A DNA stretch of 62,267 bases from Patescibacteria group bacterium (GCA_041651095.1 JBAZJV010000007.1:1-62267); one strand, 5' to 3'. Shown: positions 51,005-56,188, counted from the stretch's first letter. Notes: a model not told the origin generated them from the sequence alone. Made by a program: numbers and translations.

Positions 51005-51032
51005 AGCCGATTCAAGAGAATCGGCTTTTTTT
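51005..51032. terminator. Terminator between the small ORFs and folD
   Basis: agccgattc-aaga-gaatcggct followed by a T run. Confidence 0.75.
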
Positions 51033-51828
51033 ATTTCTGGTGGCGACGCTTATAGATTTCCAGGACATTCCGAAGCAAGAACGCTACGGTCATCGGCCCG
51101 ATGCCGCCCGGTACCGGCGTGATGAAAGACGCCTTGTCTTTAACGTCTTCATAGTCGACGTCGCCCCGGACTTCGCCGCCGACCGGCGTAATGCCGATAT
51201 CGATGATCACCGCGTCTTCTTTGACGGCCGTCTTTTTCACCTGATGCGGAGCGCCCAAGGCGGTCACCAGCAGATCGGCTTTTTCCGACCGATCTTTCAA
51301 ACTAACGGTCATGCCTTTAGTCTCCAACAGTTCCTTGACGCTCTGGCCGAAAATCTCTGAATTATATAATACGCAAGCCGTCTTACCGGCTGCCTGGAAC
51401 TTAATCTCGTCCAGGCAGGCCGAGATAGAAGACAAAACCGGAGATAATATATGATCCGGCCGTTCCGGATGGAAGCCGTCCGCATCCTTTTCCGGATCGA
51501 TGGCCGCGATAATCTTATCAGTATTAAATTTTTCGGGCAGCGGCAGCTGGACTAAAATGCCATCGATCAACGGGTCCTGATTGAGAAAGTTAATGGTTGC
51601 CAACACGGCCGCCTCTCCTTCTGCCGCCTCGATCTGATACAAATGGGTATCAACGCCGACTTTGGCTCCTTCTTTCTGTTTCAAGGAAACATAAATCTGC
51701 GAATCAGGCCGTTTGCCGACCAGAATGATCGCCAGATTCGGCCTGGCGCCTTGCAACTGGAATATTTCCCGGGCAATGCCGTCTTTGATTTTCTCGGCGA
51801 TCGCCCGACCGTCTATTTTTTTTAACAT
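51031..51828 (-). CDS. folD: Methylene-THF dehydrogenase/cyclohydrolase (start 51828)
   Basis: IDG, Y...K, GILVQLPLP, I.PEKD.DG, IDIG, GDVD, TPVPGGIGPMT. Confidence 0.95.
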   Translation of the reverse strand: MLKKIDGRAIAEKIKDGIAREIFQLQGARPNLAIILVGKRPDSQIYVSLKQKEGAKVGVDTHLYQIEAAEGEAAVLATINFLNQDPLIDGILVQLPLPEKFNTDKIIAAIDPEKDADGFHPERPDHILSPVLSSISACLDEIKFQAAGKTACVLYNSEIFGQSVKELLETKGMTVSLKDRSEKADLLVTALGAPHQVKKTAVKEDAVIIDIGITPVGGEVRGDVDYEDVKDKASFITPVPGGIGPMTVAFLLRNVLEIYKRRHQK

Positions 51829-51833
51829 AGAGA

Positions 51834-53078
51834 TTATTTGGTGGGGATCGGAAAGTTGGCGCACAATTCCCTGATCCGATCTTTCAATTCGCTTAATTTT
51901 CCGGCGTCAGCTTGATGCCTGAAGGCTTCGTCGATATAACCGGCGATCAGCCGCATTTCCGCTTCCCGCATGCCCCGGGTCGTCACCGCCGGCGTGCCGA
52001 GCCGGACGCCCGAAGGATTCATCGGCGGATTAGGATCGTCCGGAATGGTAGAACGGGATACGGAAATGCCGGTCTGCTCCAAGATCTTCTCCGCGGCCTT
52101 GCCGGACAAGCCTTGCGGATTCAGGTCGACAACCATCAGATGATTGTCCGTGCCGCCGGAAATGATCCGGTAGCCGCGTTGCCTCAGCTCGGCGGCCAAC
52201 ACCTGCGCATTCTTGATGATCTGCTTGGCGTATTCGGTGAACTCCGGTTTCAAAGCCTCGCCGAAAGCGACGGCTTTAGCCGCCGTGATGTGGTCATGCG
52301 GCCCGCCTTGCATACCGGGAAAAACCGAACTGTCTATCTGCTTGGCAAATTTTTCCTTACACAGGATCAATGCGCCACGCGGCCCGCGCAGGGTCTTGTG
52401 GGTGGTCGTGGAGACGACATCGAAGATCGGCACCGGATTGCTTAACTGCTGGGCGGCGACCAAACCGGCGATGTGGGCGATATCGGCGAAAGTATAGGCG
52501 CCGATCTCATCGGCGATGGCCTTGAATTTCGGCCAATCGATTTCCCGCGAATAGGCGCTGAAGCCGGCGACGATCATCTTCGGCCGTTCGCGCCGGGCGA
52601 TCGCCCGCACTTCATCCATATCGATGCGGCCGGTGGCGGCGTCGACGCCGTATTGCACGAATTGATACAAGCGGCCGGAAAAATTTACTTTATGGCCGTG
52701 GGACAGATGTCCGCCGTGATCCAATTTCAAACCCAGCACCTTGTCGCCCGGCTCCAAAAAAGCCATATAGACCGCGGCGTTGGCCGGCGAACCGGACAGA
52801 GGCTGGACATTGGCGTGCTCGGCCGCGAACAATTTCTTGGCTCGCTCGATAGCTAACGTTTCTACGTCATCAATATTATAATTACCGCCATAATAGCGCT
52901 TGCCGGCATAGCCCTCGCTGTACTTATTGGTCAGTACCGTGGCCATCGCCTCCAGGACGGCTGGACTCACATAGTTCTCCGAAGCGATCAGCTCGATCTC
53001 TTCGTTCTGCCGTTTTGCCTCCTTGGCGATAATCTCCCAAACGGCCGGATCTTGCTGTTTTAAGTGGTCGTATTGCAT
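51834..53078 (-). CDS. glyA: Serine hydroxymethyltransferase
   Basis: [48 protein letters not shown]. Confidence 0.98.
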
Positions 53079-53124: not shown

Positions 53125-53823
53125 TTATCGGAACTGCTGGAATAGCGGACCATACATATCTTCCCGGATATCTATCTTGAGCTCATGCCGATTGACGCGG
53201 TCGGCAGCAGCGATCGGCGCGCCGCTGATGACGGCCAGCGGCTGCCGTTCCCGACCTTCGCCCATGCATAGCACGGCCGCGGCGGCCAGGCTGTCAGCCA
53301 CGTTGACGCGGGAAAAATGGAACGGTCGGCCGAAGAGATCCGGTGTCCGTTTGTAGCTCTTGATGCCGCGAAAACCGGCATAGCCTAAAGTAACGCCGGT
53401 GATGCCGGCCCGGAGCGGCGCCGTCCGGCTGTCGGTGATGATCACGCCGAGCGACGATAGTCTGAATTTCTCCTTAAGGTGGCGGCGTACCCGGTTGGCG
53501 GCGAGGAAGCTGTCGCGTGGCAGCAGGATGATCTGACCGTTGCCGTTGCTCTCGTCGATGCCCGCGCTGGCCATCACTACTCCGTCTTTAATCGTCAAAA
53601 AAACACGCTTAGTCGGCAAGGCAAACTGGCTTTCGCGGCGGATTAGTTTTTCTTTGTCCGCTTTGGTCGAAAGTAGACGGCAACGGCCTTCGGCTAAAGC
53701 CACTATTTTGGAAGTGACGACAACGACATCGCCCTCGGCCAGGCGCCGGATATACCGGTCAATAAAAGCCAGTAAATCTTCCCGCGGCCGGAAAATGGCC
53801 GTCTTAATCGCTTTGACTCTCAT
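53125..53823 (-). CDS. CofE-like gamma-glutamyl ligase (FolC2 candidate)
   Basis: GDVVVVTSKIVALAEG, SAGIDESN, GVIITDS...PLR.G..G, D.LAAAA...MGEG.E..P. Confidence 0.85.
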   Translation of the reverse strand: MRVKAIKTAIFRPREDLLAFIDRYIRRLAEGDVVVVTSKIVALAEGRCRLLSTKADKEKLIRRESQFALPTKRVFLTIKDGVVMASAGIDESNGNGQIILLPRDSFLAANRVRRHLKEKFRLSSLGVIITDSRTAPLRAGITGVTLGYAGFRGIKSYKRTPDLFGRPFHFSRVNVADSLAAAAVLCMGEGRERQPLAVISGAPIAAADRVNRHELKIDIREDMYGPLFQQFR

Positions 53824-54445
53824 ATTTCAATAAATATATACCCAAATAAGATAGCGGCGTGTATAACAGCCCCATCGCGACCTTATACAGCCACCAGGGC
53901 GCGCTGATGAGCAAGATGGTTCGGACCGGATAAATGCCGCCGAAAGCGACGAACATAAAAATCAGAGTATCCAAGAGCTGCGACCAGAGGTTGGACAAAT
54001 TCGATAATAGCCAAAAGCCCTGTCCGTCCAGCTTACGCTTGAAAAAGAAAAAAGCCAAGACATCCTGATACTCGCCGATGGCATAAGCCAATAAGGAAGC
54101 GAGCGACATCCGAAAAGAAATTCCGAAGATAGCGGCATAACTATCCTTAAAGAGCTGTCCTTCCTTGGCCCAAGGCACAACCAGGGAAATTATTGAATAG
54201 ACCAGGAACAAGAGGACGCTGAGTACGCCGGCCAGAACGAAATTCTTGGCCATTTGTCGGCCGTAGACCTGACCGATGACGTCGGTAGTCAGAAAAACAA
54301 AAGGAAAAAAGAATACTGCGACCGACAAATGCGTTCCGAACACGAAAGGCATTATTTTCAAACCGAGCGTATTCGCCGCGAACAAGGAAACCAAATAGAG
54401 GGCTAAGGCGATAAGGATCTTGAAGTCGATGCTGATAGAAGGCAT
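53804..54445 (-). CDS. yhhQ: Queuosine precursor transporter (YhhQ/DUF165, Vut_1)
   Basis: AN..G.K, FP..F..TD.I..VYG, R...ASL.AY, SN..SQ.LDT..F...AF. Confidence 0.88.
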   Translation of the reverse strand: MPSISIDFKILIALALYLVSLFAANTLGLKIMPFVFGTHLSVAVFFFPFVFLTTDVIGQVYGRQMAKNFVLAGVLSVLLFLVYSIISLVVPWAKEGQLFKDSYAAIFGISFRMSLASLLAYAIGEYQDVLAFFFFKRKLDGQGFWLLSNLSNLWSQLLDTLIFMFVAFGGIYPVRTILLISAPWWLYKVAMGLLYTPLSYLGIYLLKYESQSD

Positions 54446-54449
54446 AAAA

Positions 54450-54587
54450 GGAAATTAGATAAATAAAAACGCCCCAAAGGGCGTTTTGAAAACAAAAAAC
54501 CCTTTGGCTTTATACAGGTTCTGCCAGTAAAGAGAAGCTCGACCAAGTTCTTATCGTCTTATTTATCAACATAATATCTTTATTATA
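54450..54587 (-). promoter_or_regulatory. yhhQ leader: promoter plus candidate riboswitch/attenuator
   Basis: TATAAT at 54582-54587; terminator 54466-54487; competing 9-bp pairing of 54499-54507 with 54474-54482. Confidence 0.6.
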
Positions 54588-54616
54588 GCCCAGCGCCCTG
54601 GAAAAGCCAAGGCCTT

Positions 54617-56188
54617 TCATAATGGCTTGACTAAATATGTATTCTTCAAATGATAGCCAAATTTACGATAATATTGCCGAACGCCGACTCCCGAGATAAC
54701 AGCCAGGCGCCGGGCGCCCGCTTGCCGGGCGATTTGTTCAGCGGTTGCCAGCAATCTTTTTCCTAATCCTCCGTGCTGGATTCTTTTGGCACCGCTCGGC
54801 GGCACCAGTTCGCCATAGACATGCAGTTCGCGCAGCAATGCCGGAGCTATCGGGCTGGACTGATCCAACCGCAAACGGGCAAAGCCATATAAAACCTGGC
54901 GGTCGGGGCTATCAGCGCTGATAAAATATTCAATCCCGCCGGCGGCCGCATAATTAAGCCGGTTGATCCGGTAATCGCCCAAAACAGCTTCTTTGGCTTC
55001 CCGGCAGCGGATACATTGGCAGGCGACGCCGCGGTCTTTCATTATTTGCCGCAGATTAGTGATCTTGTTGCCGGCGACGATAGACTCGCTGGGGATGTCC
55101 CGGATCAGACGGATGATTCTGACATAAGGCGGCACCGCCGCTTTACATTTAATGATCAAGTTCTGCAAAACCTTGTCCGCGTAGGGCCGATATTTTCCTT
55201 CCCGATACCAGCGATACAATAGGCTGCCCCGGGTGACGACCGTCGGATAGAATTTTATCTGATCCGGCTGGAAACGGCTGTCCGTGAACAATTGCTTGAA
55301 GAGCGCCAGGTCTTTCGCCGGCGTCGCTCCCGGCAAGGCCGGCATCAAATGGTAAGTGATCTTGAAGCCGTGGCGCCGCAACAGCGCCGTGGCCGCGGCG
55401 ATTTCCTCTACGCCGTGGCCGCGGCGATTCAGGCGCAGGATCTCGTCATCTACGGCCTGGACGCCGATCTCCACCCGCGTACAGCCTAATTCGCGCATTT
55501 CCCGTAATTCGGATTCACTGATATAGTCCGGCCGGGTCTCCAAAGTCAGACCGATGATTTTGTGGGCGGCGGTTTCGTTCTGGCGCTGTTCCCGGCGCAG
55601 AGCGGCGCGCAGTTCTTCCAGTTTGGCGCTTTGACGATAGGGCGAAGACTTGTCTGATCCATAGCGATAATCATTGGCCGCCCGAAAACAGTTTAAAATA
55701 TACCAGTACCGATACCGGCGGGGCAGATAGCTCCAGGTTCCGCCGATCACGATGATCTCTATTTTGACTGGTTCATGACCATTGTTTTCCAGGGCTTGCA
55801 AGCGTCGGCTGACTTGCTTATACGGATCATAACCGCAGGCAATGGCTCGCATCACCGCTGGTTCATTGGACAGATAGCTGGTCGGCACCGCCGTTTCATG
55901 CGGACAGTAAGCGCAAGAACCGGGGCAAGGGTAAGCTTTGGTCAGAACGGCAACCGGCGCGATACCGGATAAAGTGCGGATTGATCGCTTACGCAAAATT
56001 CTTTCCAAAATTCCGGCGCGCGGCTTACCGGTGGCTACCAAGCGACGGTATTCCGACAATAAATCAGAATTCAGTATCGACGCTAAACGATATTTTTTGC
56101 ATAGTGCCCGCTTAGCGGCCTCCAAATCAGTCCGATTTTTAATATGACTAGCGTAATTTTGCCAAAACTCTTTTATTGCCTCTCCCAT
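54617..56188 (-). CDS. elp3: Elp3-like radical SAM/KAT tRNA U34 carboxymethyltransferase
   Basis: LSG..PVA, CPGSCAYC, GGT, ETRPD, E.GVQ, GNAT part ELHVYG, QH.GLG, ISG.GVR.YY.K.GY. Confidence 0.92.
   Translation of the reverse strand: MGEAIKEFWQNYASHIKNRTDLEAAKRALCKKYRLASILNSDLLSEYRRLVATGKPRAGILERILRKRSIRTLSGIAPVAVLTKAYPCPGSCAYCPHETAVPTSYLSNEPAVMRAIACGYDPYKQVSRRLQALENNGHEPVKIEIIVIGGTWSYLPRRYRYWYILNCFRAANDYRYGSDKSSPYRQSAKLEELRAALRREQRQNETAAHKIIGLTLETRPDYISESELREMRELGCTRVEIGVQAVDDEILRLNRRGHGVEEIAAATALLRRHGFKITYHLMPALPGATPAKDLALFKQLFTDSRFQPDQIKFYPTVVTRGSLLYRWYREGKYRPYADKVLQNLIIKCKAAVPPYVRIIRLIRDIPSESIVAGNKITNLRQIMKDRGVACQCIRCREAKEAVLGDYRINRLNYAAAGGIEYFISADSPDRQVLYGFARLRLDQSSPIAPALLRELHVYGELVPPSGAKRIQHGGLGKRLLATAEQIARQAGARRLAVISGVGVRQYYRKFGYHLKNTYLVKPL

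Follow-up and report, generated by a model that had tools for sequence, protein, structure and literature searches.

The described systems closest to the element analysed here are leaders in which translation of a short open reading frame (ORF) governs transcription of the genes behind it. Two leader peptides of Gammaproteobacteria, TnaC (tna operon, L-Trp) and SpeFL (speF operon, L-ornithine), are conserved in amino-acid sequence rather than in codon content, and the position of the ribosome on the leader decides transcription into the operon. In the classical attenuators trpL, hisL, pheL, leuL and thrL, a leader ORF precedes mutually exclusive antiterminator and terminator structures, and termination is favoured when a ribosome that has reached the leader stop codon lies over the antiterminator 5′ arm. 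In mycobacteria, leaderless polycysteine short ORFs reportedly act as cysteine-responsive attenuators. For folate genes, the functional counterparts are RNA aptamers: the tetrahydrofolate (THF) riboswitches THF-I and THF-II and the ZTP (pfl) riboswitch are cis-acting 5′ leaders for folT, folE, glyA and folD, and respond to folate or 10-formyl-THF. Here, we describe the leader upstream of yhhQ in a stretch of 62,267 nucleotides (nt) from a Patescibacteria group bacterium (GCA_041651095.1 JBAZJV010000007.1:1-62267; the whole stretch is called the window). This leader is likely to attenuate transcription of an operon for folate salvage and one-carbon metabolism in a ribosome-dependent manner, through a leader peptide.

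Patescibacteria (CPR, candidate phyla radiation) are mostly uncultured and depend on scavenged cofactors, and to our knowledge almost nothing is known about gene regulation in this phylum. In the literature, coverage of which was incomplete, no account was found of a leader or arrest peptide linked to folate, nor of the present leader peptide in Patescibacteria. The leader in the window has the following parts:

54605-54610, minus strand: -35 hexamer TTGGCT of the leader promoter (promoter scan and sequence)
54582-54587, minus strand: -10 hexamer TATAAT, with a 17-nt spacer to the -35 hexamer and 9 nt 5′ of the leader ATG
54510-54572, minus strand: leader ORF, 20 codons plus TAA (54512-54510), product MLINKTIRTWSSFSLLAEPV
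54534-54548, minus strand: codons 9-13 of the ORF, ACT TGG TCG AGC TTC (T-W-S-S-F), the near-invariant core of the leader peptide
54500-54509, minus strand: antiterminator 5′ arm AGCCAAAGGG, starting 2 nt past the leader stop codon
54474-54482, minus strand: antiterminator 3′ arm GCCCUUUGG, made up of the terminator 5′ arm and loop
54461-54487, minus strand: intrinsic terminator, a stem-loop (54487-54466) and then a U-rich tail

The two promoter hexamers match the consensus at 10 of 12 positions (promoter scan), and the ORF behind them, which lacks a Shine-Dalgarno (SD) sequence, reads ATG TTG ATA AAT AAG ACG ATA AGA ACT TGG TCG AGC TTC ... TAA. The terminator stem-loop (AAAACGCCC-TTTG-GGGCGTTTT, then TATTT) has nine pairs and a stability of -13.1 kcal/mol, and lies about 20 nt upstream of the yhhQ start. 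Behind the stop codon, CCAAAGGG (54507-54500) is complementary to CCCUUUGG (54481-54474), with a further pair from the flanking U (54499) and G (54482). This duplex of the stop-codon region with the terminator 5′ arm has a stability of -12.3 kcal/mol (z = -3.8, matched by 0 of 200 shuffles), and the minimum-free-energy fold of the whole leader is the antiterminator, not the terminator. An earlier note on the window had proposed a transcriptional switch upstream of yhhQ, consisting of the promoter TTGGCT-17-TATAAT, the terminator at 54487-54466 and an upstream segment whose pairing excludes the terminator. All three were recovered on the minus strand, the exclusive pairing being better than chance, and the terminator, the antiterminator and their promoter-proximal position support a leader of this kind.

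One line of evidence for this reading is the conservation of the short ORF. Upstream regions of yhhQ orthologues were collected from 61 related genomes and oriented, giving 18 orthologues (genus and order), and a scan for the YhhQ protein, with one genome per GTDB species, added 80 further loci from Patescibacteria, Parcubacteria, Paceibacterota and Candidatus Taylor-, Kaiser-, Colwell- and Moranii-bacteria, for a total of 98. The ORF is present at 49 of these 98 loci (14 of the 18 and 35 of the 80), where the region upstream of yhhQ carries the pattern ATG-N24-TGG-TCN-RGN-TTY. The motif TGG-TCN-RGN-TKY occurs 50 times in the 98 loci, and in 49 of the 50 an ATG stands exactly 27 nt 5′ of it. 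The resulting peptides follow the consensus M-L-H-N-x-x-I-K-T-W-S-G/S-F, in which the Trp is always codon 10, and continue with 1-12 variable residues; peptides of relatives begin MLITKNITTWSGF..., MLMTKNITTWSGF..., MLNNHRLTTWSGF... and MLYNHQIKTWSSF... Among 48 distinct sequences of this yhhQ-anchored set, which is the basis for residue and entropy statistics, M (48), W (48) and S (48) are invariant at positions 1, 10 and 11, and L (44), T (45) and F (47) nearly so at positions 2, 9 and 13, while position 12 is G (38) or S (10). At the other positions counted, H (20) and I (11) prevail at position 3, N (32) and T (14) at position 4, and I (29) at position 7. Scans of the leader peptides against Pfam and NCBIfam matched no family.

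The single exception among the 50 motif copies lies about 153 nt 5′ of yhhQ in Candidatus Falkowbacteria (L035, MFFY01000031.1), where an A-run is one A longer, so that TWSSF and the ATG lie in different frames; this is either a sequencing error or a decaying leader.

Variation in the core is of coding type. Summed column entropies at codon positions 1, 2 and 3 are 7.7, 8.1 and 17.5 bits, and the third position is the most variable in 10 of the 11 variable codons. In T9, W10, S11, G/S12 and F13, the first two codon positions are invariant or nearly so, with 0.9-1.9 bits at third positions: Ser11 is encoded by TCT (20), TCC (17), TCG (6) and TCA (5), and position 12 by all four GGN codons and by AGY. 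Because variation is concentrated at third codon positions, purifying selection can be said to act on the peptide sequence. Synonymous changes thus appear to be tolerated and missense changes not, the sequence behaviour of arrest peptides of the TnaC/SpeFL/SecM type. The invariant Trp about 10 residues into the peptide is a further likeness to TnaC and SpeFL, and, as in SpeFL, an N-terminal part rich in His and basic residues precedes a C-proximal motif. There is no sequence similarity to either peptide, however. The motif of the Patescibacteria leader, in contrast to theirs, lies at a fixed distance of nine residues from the initiator Met on a leaderless mRNA, the stop codon is at no fixed distance from the motif, and the readout is an intrinsic terminator/antiterminator pair, not Rho. 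The phylum and the presumed signal, folate status, also differ, and stalling is only putative here.

The absence of an SD sequence is a family trait. In 140 distinct leaders, -10-like hexamers peak 6 and 9 nt 5′ of the ATG (19 each at five or more of six matches, versus about 1-3 elsewhere), and SD-like sequences occur in 10 of the 140 leaders versus 23 of 84 downstream genes. Because TATAAT ends 9 nt before the ATG, the window transcript is probably leaderless or has a 5′ untranslated region of about 3 nt, and the ORF is probably translated from such an mRNA. Leaderless first-cistron short ORFs that control an operon through their own translation are the likeness to the mycobacterial polycysteine ORFs; those are said to sense through consecutive Cys codons, whereas the peptide here is non-repetitive and conserved, and belongs to another phylum and pathway.

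The second line of evidence is the RNA that follows the ORF. ORF lengths among 134 leaders fall into two classes, one of 14-15 codons (31 leaders) and one of 17-25 codons (103 leaders); they are never below 14 codons, and never 13 or 16. In most leaders of 17-25 codons, an intrinsic terminator is accompanied by an alternative helix whose 5′ arm lies directly beside the leader stop codon or overlaps it. For pairing of the stop region with the terminator 5′ arm, the median z is -3.1, and z is below -2 in 79% of 38 leaders. The paired arms vary by lineage (CCAAAGGG/CCCUUUGG, CAGAGGGC/GCCCUCUG, CCGAUAGGGC/GCCCUAUCGG and GAUAAGGCG/CGCCUUAUC), a pattern that would in effect amount to covariation. 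With the A of the ATG as nt 1, 62 long-class leaders place the start of the arm at nt 63 ± 5, the end of the ORF at nt 65 ± 4.5 and the terminator stem at about nt 93-113. Across the family, the median start of the arm lies 1 nt short of the stop-codon end, compared with 2 nt past the UAA in the window, and the same terminator/antiterminator layout recurs before downstream genes other than yhhQ. An anti-antiterminator, formed by the ORF body with the arm, was at chance level (median z of -0.3 across leaders, -0.7 in the window).

A conserved short ORF of 14-25 codons is therefore found between promoter and terminator, together with exclusive structures and an ORF end so placed that a terminating ribosome would disrupt the antiterminator. 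These features are shared with the classical attenuators. Unlike those, the leader has neither a regulatory codon run nor a region 1/anti-antiterminator, its peptide is itself conserved, and the genes behind it serve cofactor salvage and synthesis.

What the leader controls can be judged from its distribution. A sequence-only covariance model of the leader core (R1) matches the window at 54534-54577 (31.6 bits, E 1.8e-7), the sole copy in the genome. In 401 genomes spread over the phylum, R1 found single leader copies in about nine (E<1e-4), preceding distant yhhQ and cofE-like genes, a FolB-HPPK gene (folB-folK), an FGase-family (N-formylglutamate amidohydrolase) gene, an NlpC/P60 peptidase gene and small unassigned ORFs. 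An exact-pattern scan of metagenome contigs gave at least 119 loci, at least 103 of them with an ORF of the family type of 13-30 residues; downstream genes are simple first-ORF calls, in which a few start codons are miscalled inside terminators. The first gene is yhhQ-type, usually followed by cofE-like, at at least about 29 of these loci, NlpC/P60 at at least 20, cofE-like, in some cases followed by glyA-folD or folD, at at least eight, and of the FGase family at at least eight. A FolC-type Mur ligase comes first at at least three loci, an unassigned membrane protein followed by cofE-like at at least three, and an unassigned protein of about 180 residues at at least five, with cofE-like next in four of the five. 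glyA-folD, folD, folK and folB each come first at one locus or more. Among the matches listed, no queuosine gene stands behind the leader. By its gene content, the regulon is one of folate, not of queuosine.

In the mechanism proposed for the attenuator, transcription would start at or within about 3 nt of the leader AUG. The RNA alone would fold into the antiterminator (54509-54500 with 54482-54474), and RNA polymerase would read through. In the OFF state, a ribosome at the UAA would cover the antiterminator 5′ arm, the terminator (54487-54466) would form and transcription would stop about 20 nt before yhhQ. In the ON state, the ribosome would be held at or near T-W-S-(G/S)-F (codons 9-13), or would never initiate, and polymerase would again read through. 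A ribosome at the ORF end would cover the arm because the arm starts 2 nt after the stop codon. By an estimate of the ribosome footprint, a ribosome with Val20 in the P site (nt 58-60) covers the mRNA to about nt 71-76, including CCAAAGGG at nt 66-73, and a ribosome at Phe13 (nt 37-39) reaches only about nt 50-53. The sensor would be the conserved N-terminal 13-mer anchored to the initiator Met, and the signal would be folate or one-carbon status. Translation of the ORF, this polarity (full translation giving OFF), a stall at the motif and folate as the signal are what we infer.

Several points weigh against a leader-peptide attenuator of this design. The leader contains no run of codons for any amino acid: the Trp and Phe codons occur once each and the Ser and Gly codons are not repeated, and it is therefore not a classical starvation attenuator. 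The class of 14-15 codons, about a quarter of the leaders, is followed by heterogeneous RNA, and the terminator/antiterminator pair was found in only three of its members (among 65 leaders in all). In some leaders of that class, a stall at the motif would coincide with the position of a terminating ribosome, and a single rule by which stalling gives ON does not obviously fit them; a rule covering the 14-15-codon class was sought and none was found. The metagenome set was picked by a pattern that fixes the ATG, parts of codons 2, 4 and 9, and codons 10-13, so that only the yhhQ-anchored set is close to unbiased, and the conservation statistics rest on that set. Finally, conservation and promoter geometry are the evidence for translation of the ORF and for its leaderless start.

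That the nascent chain itself matters is suggested by the selection at the amino-acid level, the fixed Met1-Trp10 spacing and the minimum length of 14 codons. Three candidate routes for the signal can be considered: whether or not the initiator Met is formylated, a small molecule that binds along with the nascent chain, and the frequency of initiation alone, which would leave the conserved motif without explanation. Initiation on leaderless mRNA is sensitive to formylation, and Fmt is present in 59 of the 61 relatives and in the window genome. Tentatively, and as a possibility rather than an expectation, the chain of 13 residues anchored to formylmethionine (M-L-H-N-x-x-I-K-T-W-S-G-F) could sense folate status inside the ribosome, fix where the ribosome stands on a leaderless transcript and so control a phylum-wide folate regulon. 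Such a chain would read the formylation of its own Met, which depends on 10-formyl-THF, or would bind folate or a metabolite of one-carbon stress in the exit tunnel.

The best-surviving rival is the third of these routes taken by itself. In a pure initiation sensor, the supply of formyl-Met-tRNA, made with 10-formyl-THF, would set the rate of leaderless initiation; shortage would leave the antiterminator in place and the operon ON, with no need for arrest. The leaderless promoter geometry without an SD sequence, an antiterminator that is the default fold and meets no anti-antiterminator, the folate genes of the regulon and the distribution of Fmt all agree with such a sensor, as does a polarity that would be identical for the short and long ORF classes. 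It remains unlikely, as any leaderless short ORF would do for it and the 13 conserved residues, especially T-W-S-G/S-F, are left unexplained; Fmt, moreover, is universal in these genomes and hence does not discriminate.

Another rival is an attenuator that reads decoding. The supply or modification of a tRNA might be sensed through the speed of the ribosome on the leader, either queuosine at NAY codons or the charging of the tRNAs for Trp, Ser or Gly. Under-modification of tRNA is known to derepress classical attenuators (hisT, miaA), H, N or Y make up 93 of the 192 residues at codons 3-6 (48%), TGT is present in 58 of the 61 relatives and the first gene is annotated as a queuosine-precursor transporter. 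Sensing of queuosine through NAY codons was nevertheless set aside: the regulon holds many folate genes and no queuosine genes, CAC outnumbers CAT (13 versus 7) although unmodified G34 should read NAC well, and Asp, the fourth residue decoded by queuosine-containing tRNA, is never present. The clade of the window itself has only one Asn in codons 3-6, and for the charging variant the Trp, Ser and Gly codons are single, with Gly and Ser alternating at position 12. A decoding-based attenuator is thus very unlikely.

The earlier note had read the segment from AGAACUUGGUCGAGC to GCCAAAGGG as a preQ1- or folate-binding aptamer that sequesters the antiterminator arm. The terminator/antiterminator logic that a riboswitch needs does exist here, and yhhQ genes elsewhere are under preQ1 riboswitch control (PMC5372724), a COG1738/YhhQ-family gene being downstream in both cases. 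Unlike the leaders of the preQ1-I/II/III classes, this one matches no riboswitch model, shows no aptamer structure and belongs to a folate regulon. In cmscan, no Rfam family matched in the leader when the whole window was searched at the gathering score, and no preQ1-I/II/III, THF, ZTP, T-box or leader family matched 54400-54660 at E<=10; the weak matches at that threshold (rimP, small RNAs) are at chance level and align only to the terminator hairpin. The comparison with relatives that the note had proposed turned out two ways: the upstream module is conserved, but not as an RNA structure, since its variation is of coding type and RNAalifold found 0 pairs in the conserved 48-nt core of 48 sequences. 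The supposed aptamer coincides with the short ORF, in which third codon positions vary and the distance from ATG to Trp is fixed in 49 of the 50 motif-bearing yhhQ loci. The sequestering helix (UGGC/GCCA with CUCUUU/AAAGGG over CCAAAGGG) has a z of -0.7 in the window, is equalled by 45 of 200 shuffles, has a median z of -0.3 across leaders and is not conserved, and neither is the sequence from codon 14 to the arm. Among the genes behind the leader across relatives, the association with queuosine genes required of a preQ1 riboswitch was not found, and folB, folK, folC, folD and glyA were. Of the signals proposed, preQ1 fits the evidence less well than the side remark that the signal might be folate-related, with folate genes behind the leader across the phylum. 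An aptamer at this position is highly improbable, and the conserved element reads as a translated-type short ORF, which also separates it from the THF-I, THF-II and ZTP aptamers; no Rfam model of those matches it, and its conserved part is putatively translated.

Two smaller RNA candidates were also rejected. On inspection, an AAAACC/GGUUUU hairpin around UGGUC is not retained in relatives. A T-box-like pairing of UGGN with a tRNA 3′ end is countered by the lack of an Rfam T-box match, by upstream RNA that is too short and by the codon-type variation.

It is scarcely credible that the peptide works in trans as a small protein, for instance on the transporter or on FolC2, behind a merely constitutive, partial terminator: its conservation at the amino-acid level and trans-acting leader peptides such as, reportedly, peTrpL speak for this, but its C-terminal residues vary, the end of the ORF always falls on the antiterminator arm and the ORF precedes unrelated enzymes and transporters, pointing to function in cis; the peptide might still act in trans as well as in cis.

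Read as a leader-peptide attenuator, the element marks a folate regulon phylum-wide by one conserved peptide and offers a handle for finding genes of folate salvage, with the YhhQ-type transporter, the FolC2-type ligase, NlpC/P60, FGase and two unassigned families as candidates. Very few regulatory nascent chains linked to metabolites are on record, and the element would bring a new peptide family to them; it also suggests a testable way in which cells without purine synthesis, and therefore without ZTP, could monitor one-carbon status through translation. Should the nascent chain prove to be the folate sensor, it would be the first folate-responsive arrest peptide and a protein-synthesis counterpart of the THF and ZTP riboswitches, which these organisms seem to lack. 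For riboswitch discovery, the case is a caution that a conserved leader sequence beside a terminator can be coding.

The genes of the apparent operon in the window are:

53804-54445, minus strand: yhhQ, YhhQ/Vut_1-family transporter, the first regulated gene, ATG at 54445 (PF02592, E 5.6e-35)
53125-53823, minus strand: CofE-like gamma-glutamyl ligase of FolC2 type (PF01996), overlapping the yhhQ end by 20 nt
51834-53078, minus strand: glyA, serine hydroxymethyltransferase, downstream in the operon
51031-51864, minus strand: folD, methylene-THF dehydrogenase/cyclohydrolase, the last gene of the apparent operon

The top NCBIfam match of the CofE-like protein is TIGR04132, 'putative folate metabolism gamma-glutamate ligase', at 216.6 bits (cut-off 350), and its score against the F420 enzyme CofE is lower, at 132.8 bits. 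CT611 (FolC2), a CofE homologue from Chlamydia, complements an E. coli folC mutant (PMC1971073). In the window genome, no homologue of FolC, FolK or FolB was found and the leader is single-copy, for which reason yhhQ, the cofE-like gene, glyA and folD look like the module for folate uptake, retention and use of this genome. The pair of yhhQ and cofE-like (53125-54445, minus strand, in the window; L002-L109) is conserved in most of the 98 loci, whether or not the leader is present.

The product of yhhQ scores 120.6 bits against TIGR00697, which NCBIfam names queuosine-precursor transporter. Its context of FolC2, glyA and folD, and a leader shared with folB, folK and folC, suggests that the YhhQ-type transporter imports folate or a pterin, and the queuosine name is probably a misnomer here.

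Upstream of the leader, a full-length Elp3-like protein with radical-SAM and GNAT domains is encoded at 54617-56188 on the minus strand, ending 6 nt before the leader -35 box. The terminator was considered as the 3′ end of this gene and the idea was rejected, as the promoter sits between the gene and the terminator; the same architecture is also found elsewhere 3′ of tRNA genes, of the L11 gene and of other unrelated genes.

Among the matches listed, NlpC/P60 genes rank second in frequency behind the leader and account for 20 of 94 metagenome cases; they are found at L117, L143, L151, L154, L159, L162, L177, L191, L219, L233, L252 and other loci, and upstream of cofE-like in L201. Most of these proteins have about 205-215 residues and a conserved N-terminal domain, and they may be gamma-glutamyl hydrolases or serve another step of folate salvage. 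FGase genes (PF05013) lie directly 3′ of the leader at L112, L160, L161, L185, L189, L199, L236, L237 and L246. Among the genes co-regulated with cofE-like are those of two families that match nothing in Pfam, one of membrane proteins of about 250 residues and one of soluble proteins of about 170-190 residues (L163, L169, L196 and L198; L175, L183, L238, L239 and L155); they are candidates for an alternative folate transporter and a salvage enzyme, respectively.

A distant Vut_1 paralogue of about 28% identity is encoded in the window genome (G000, contig C6:47835-48434; L026) just 3′ of a tRNA gene, with no CofE-like neighbour. The genome has TGT, so that the real transporter of queuosine precursors may be this paralogue, and uptake of such precursors need not be the task of the yhhQ in the window.

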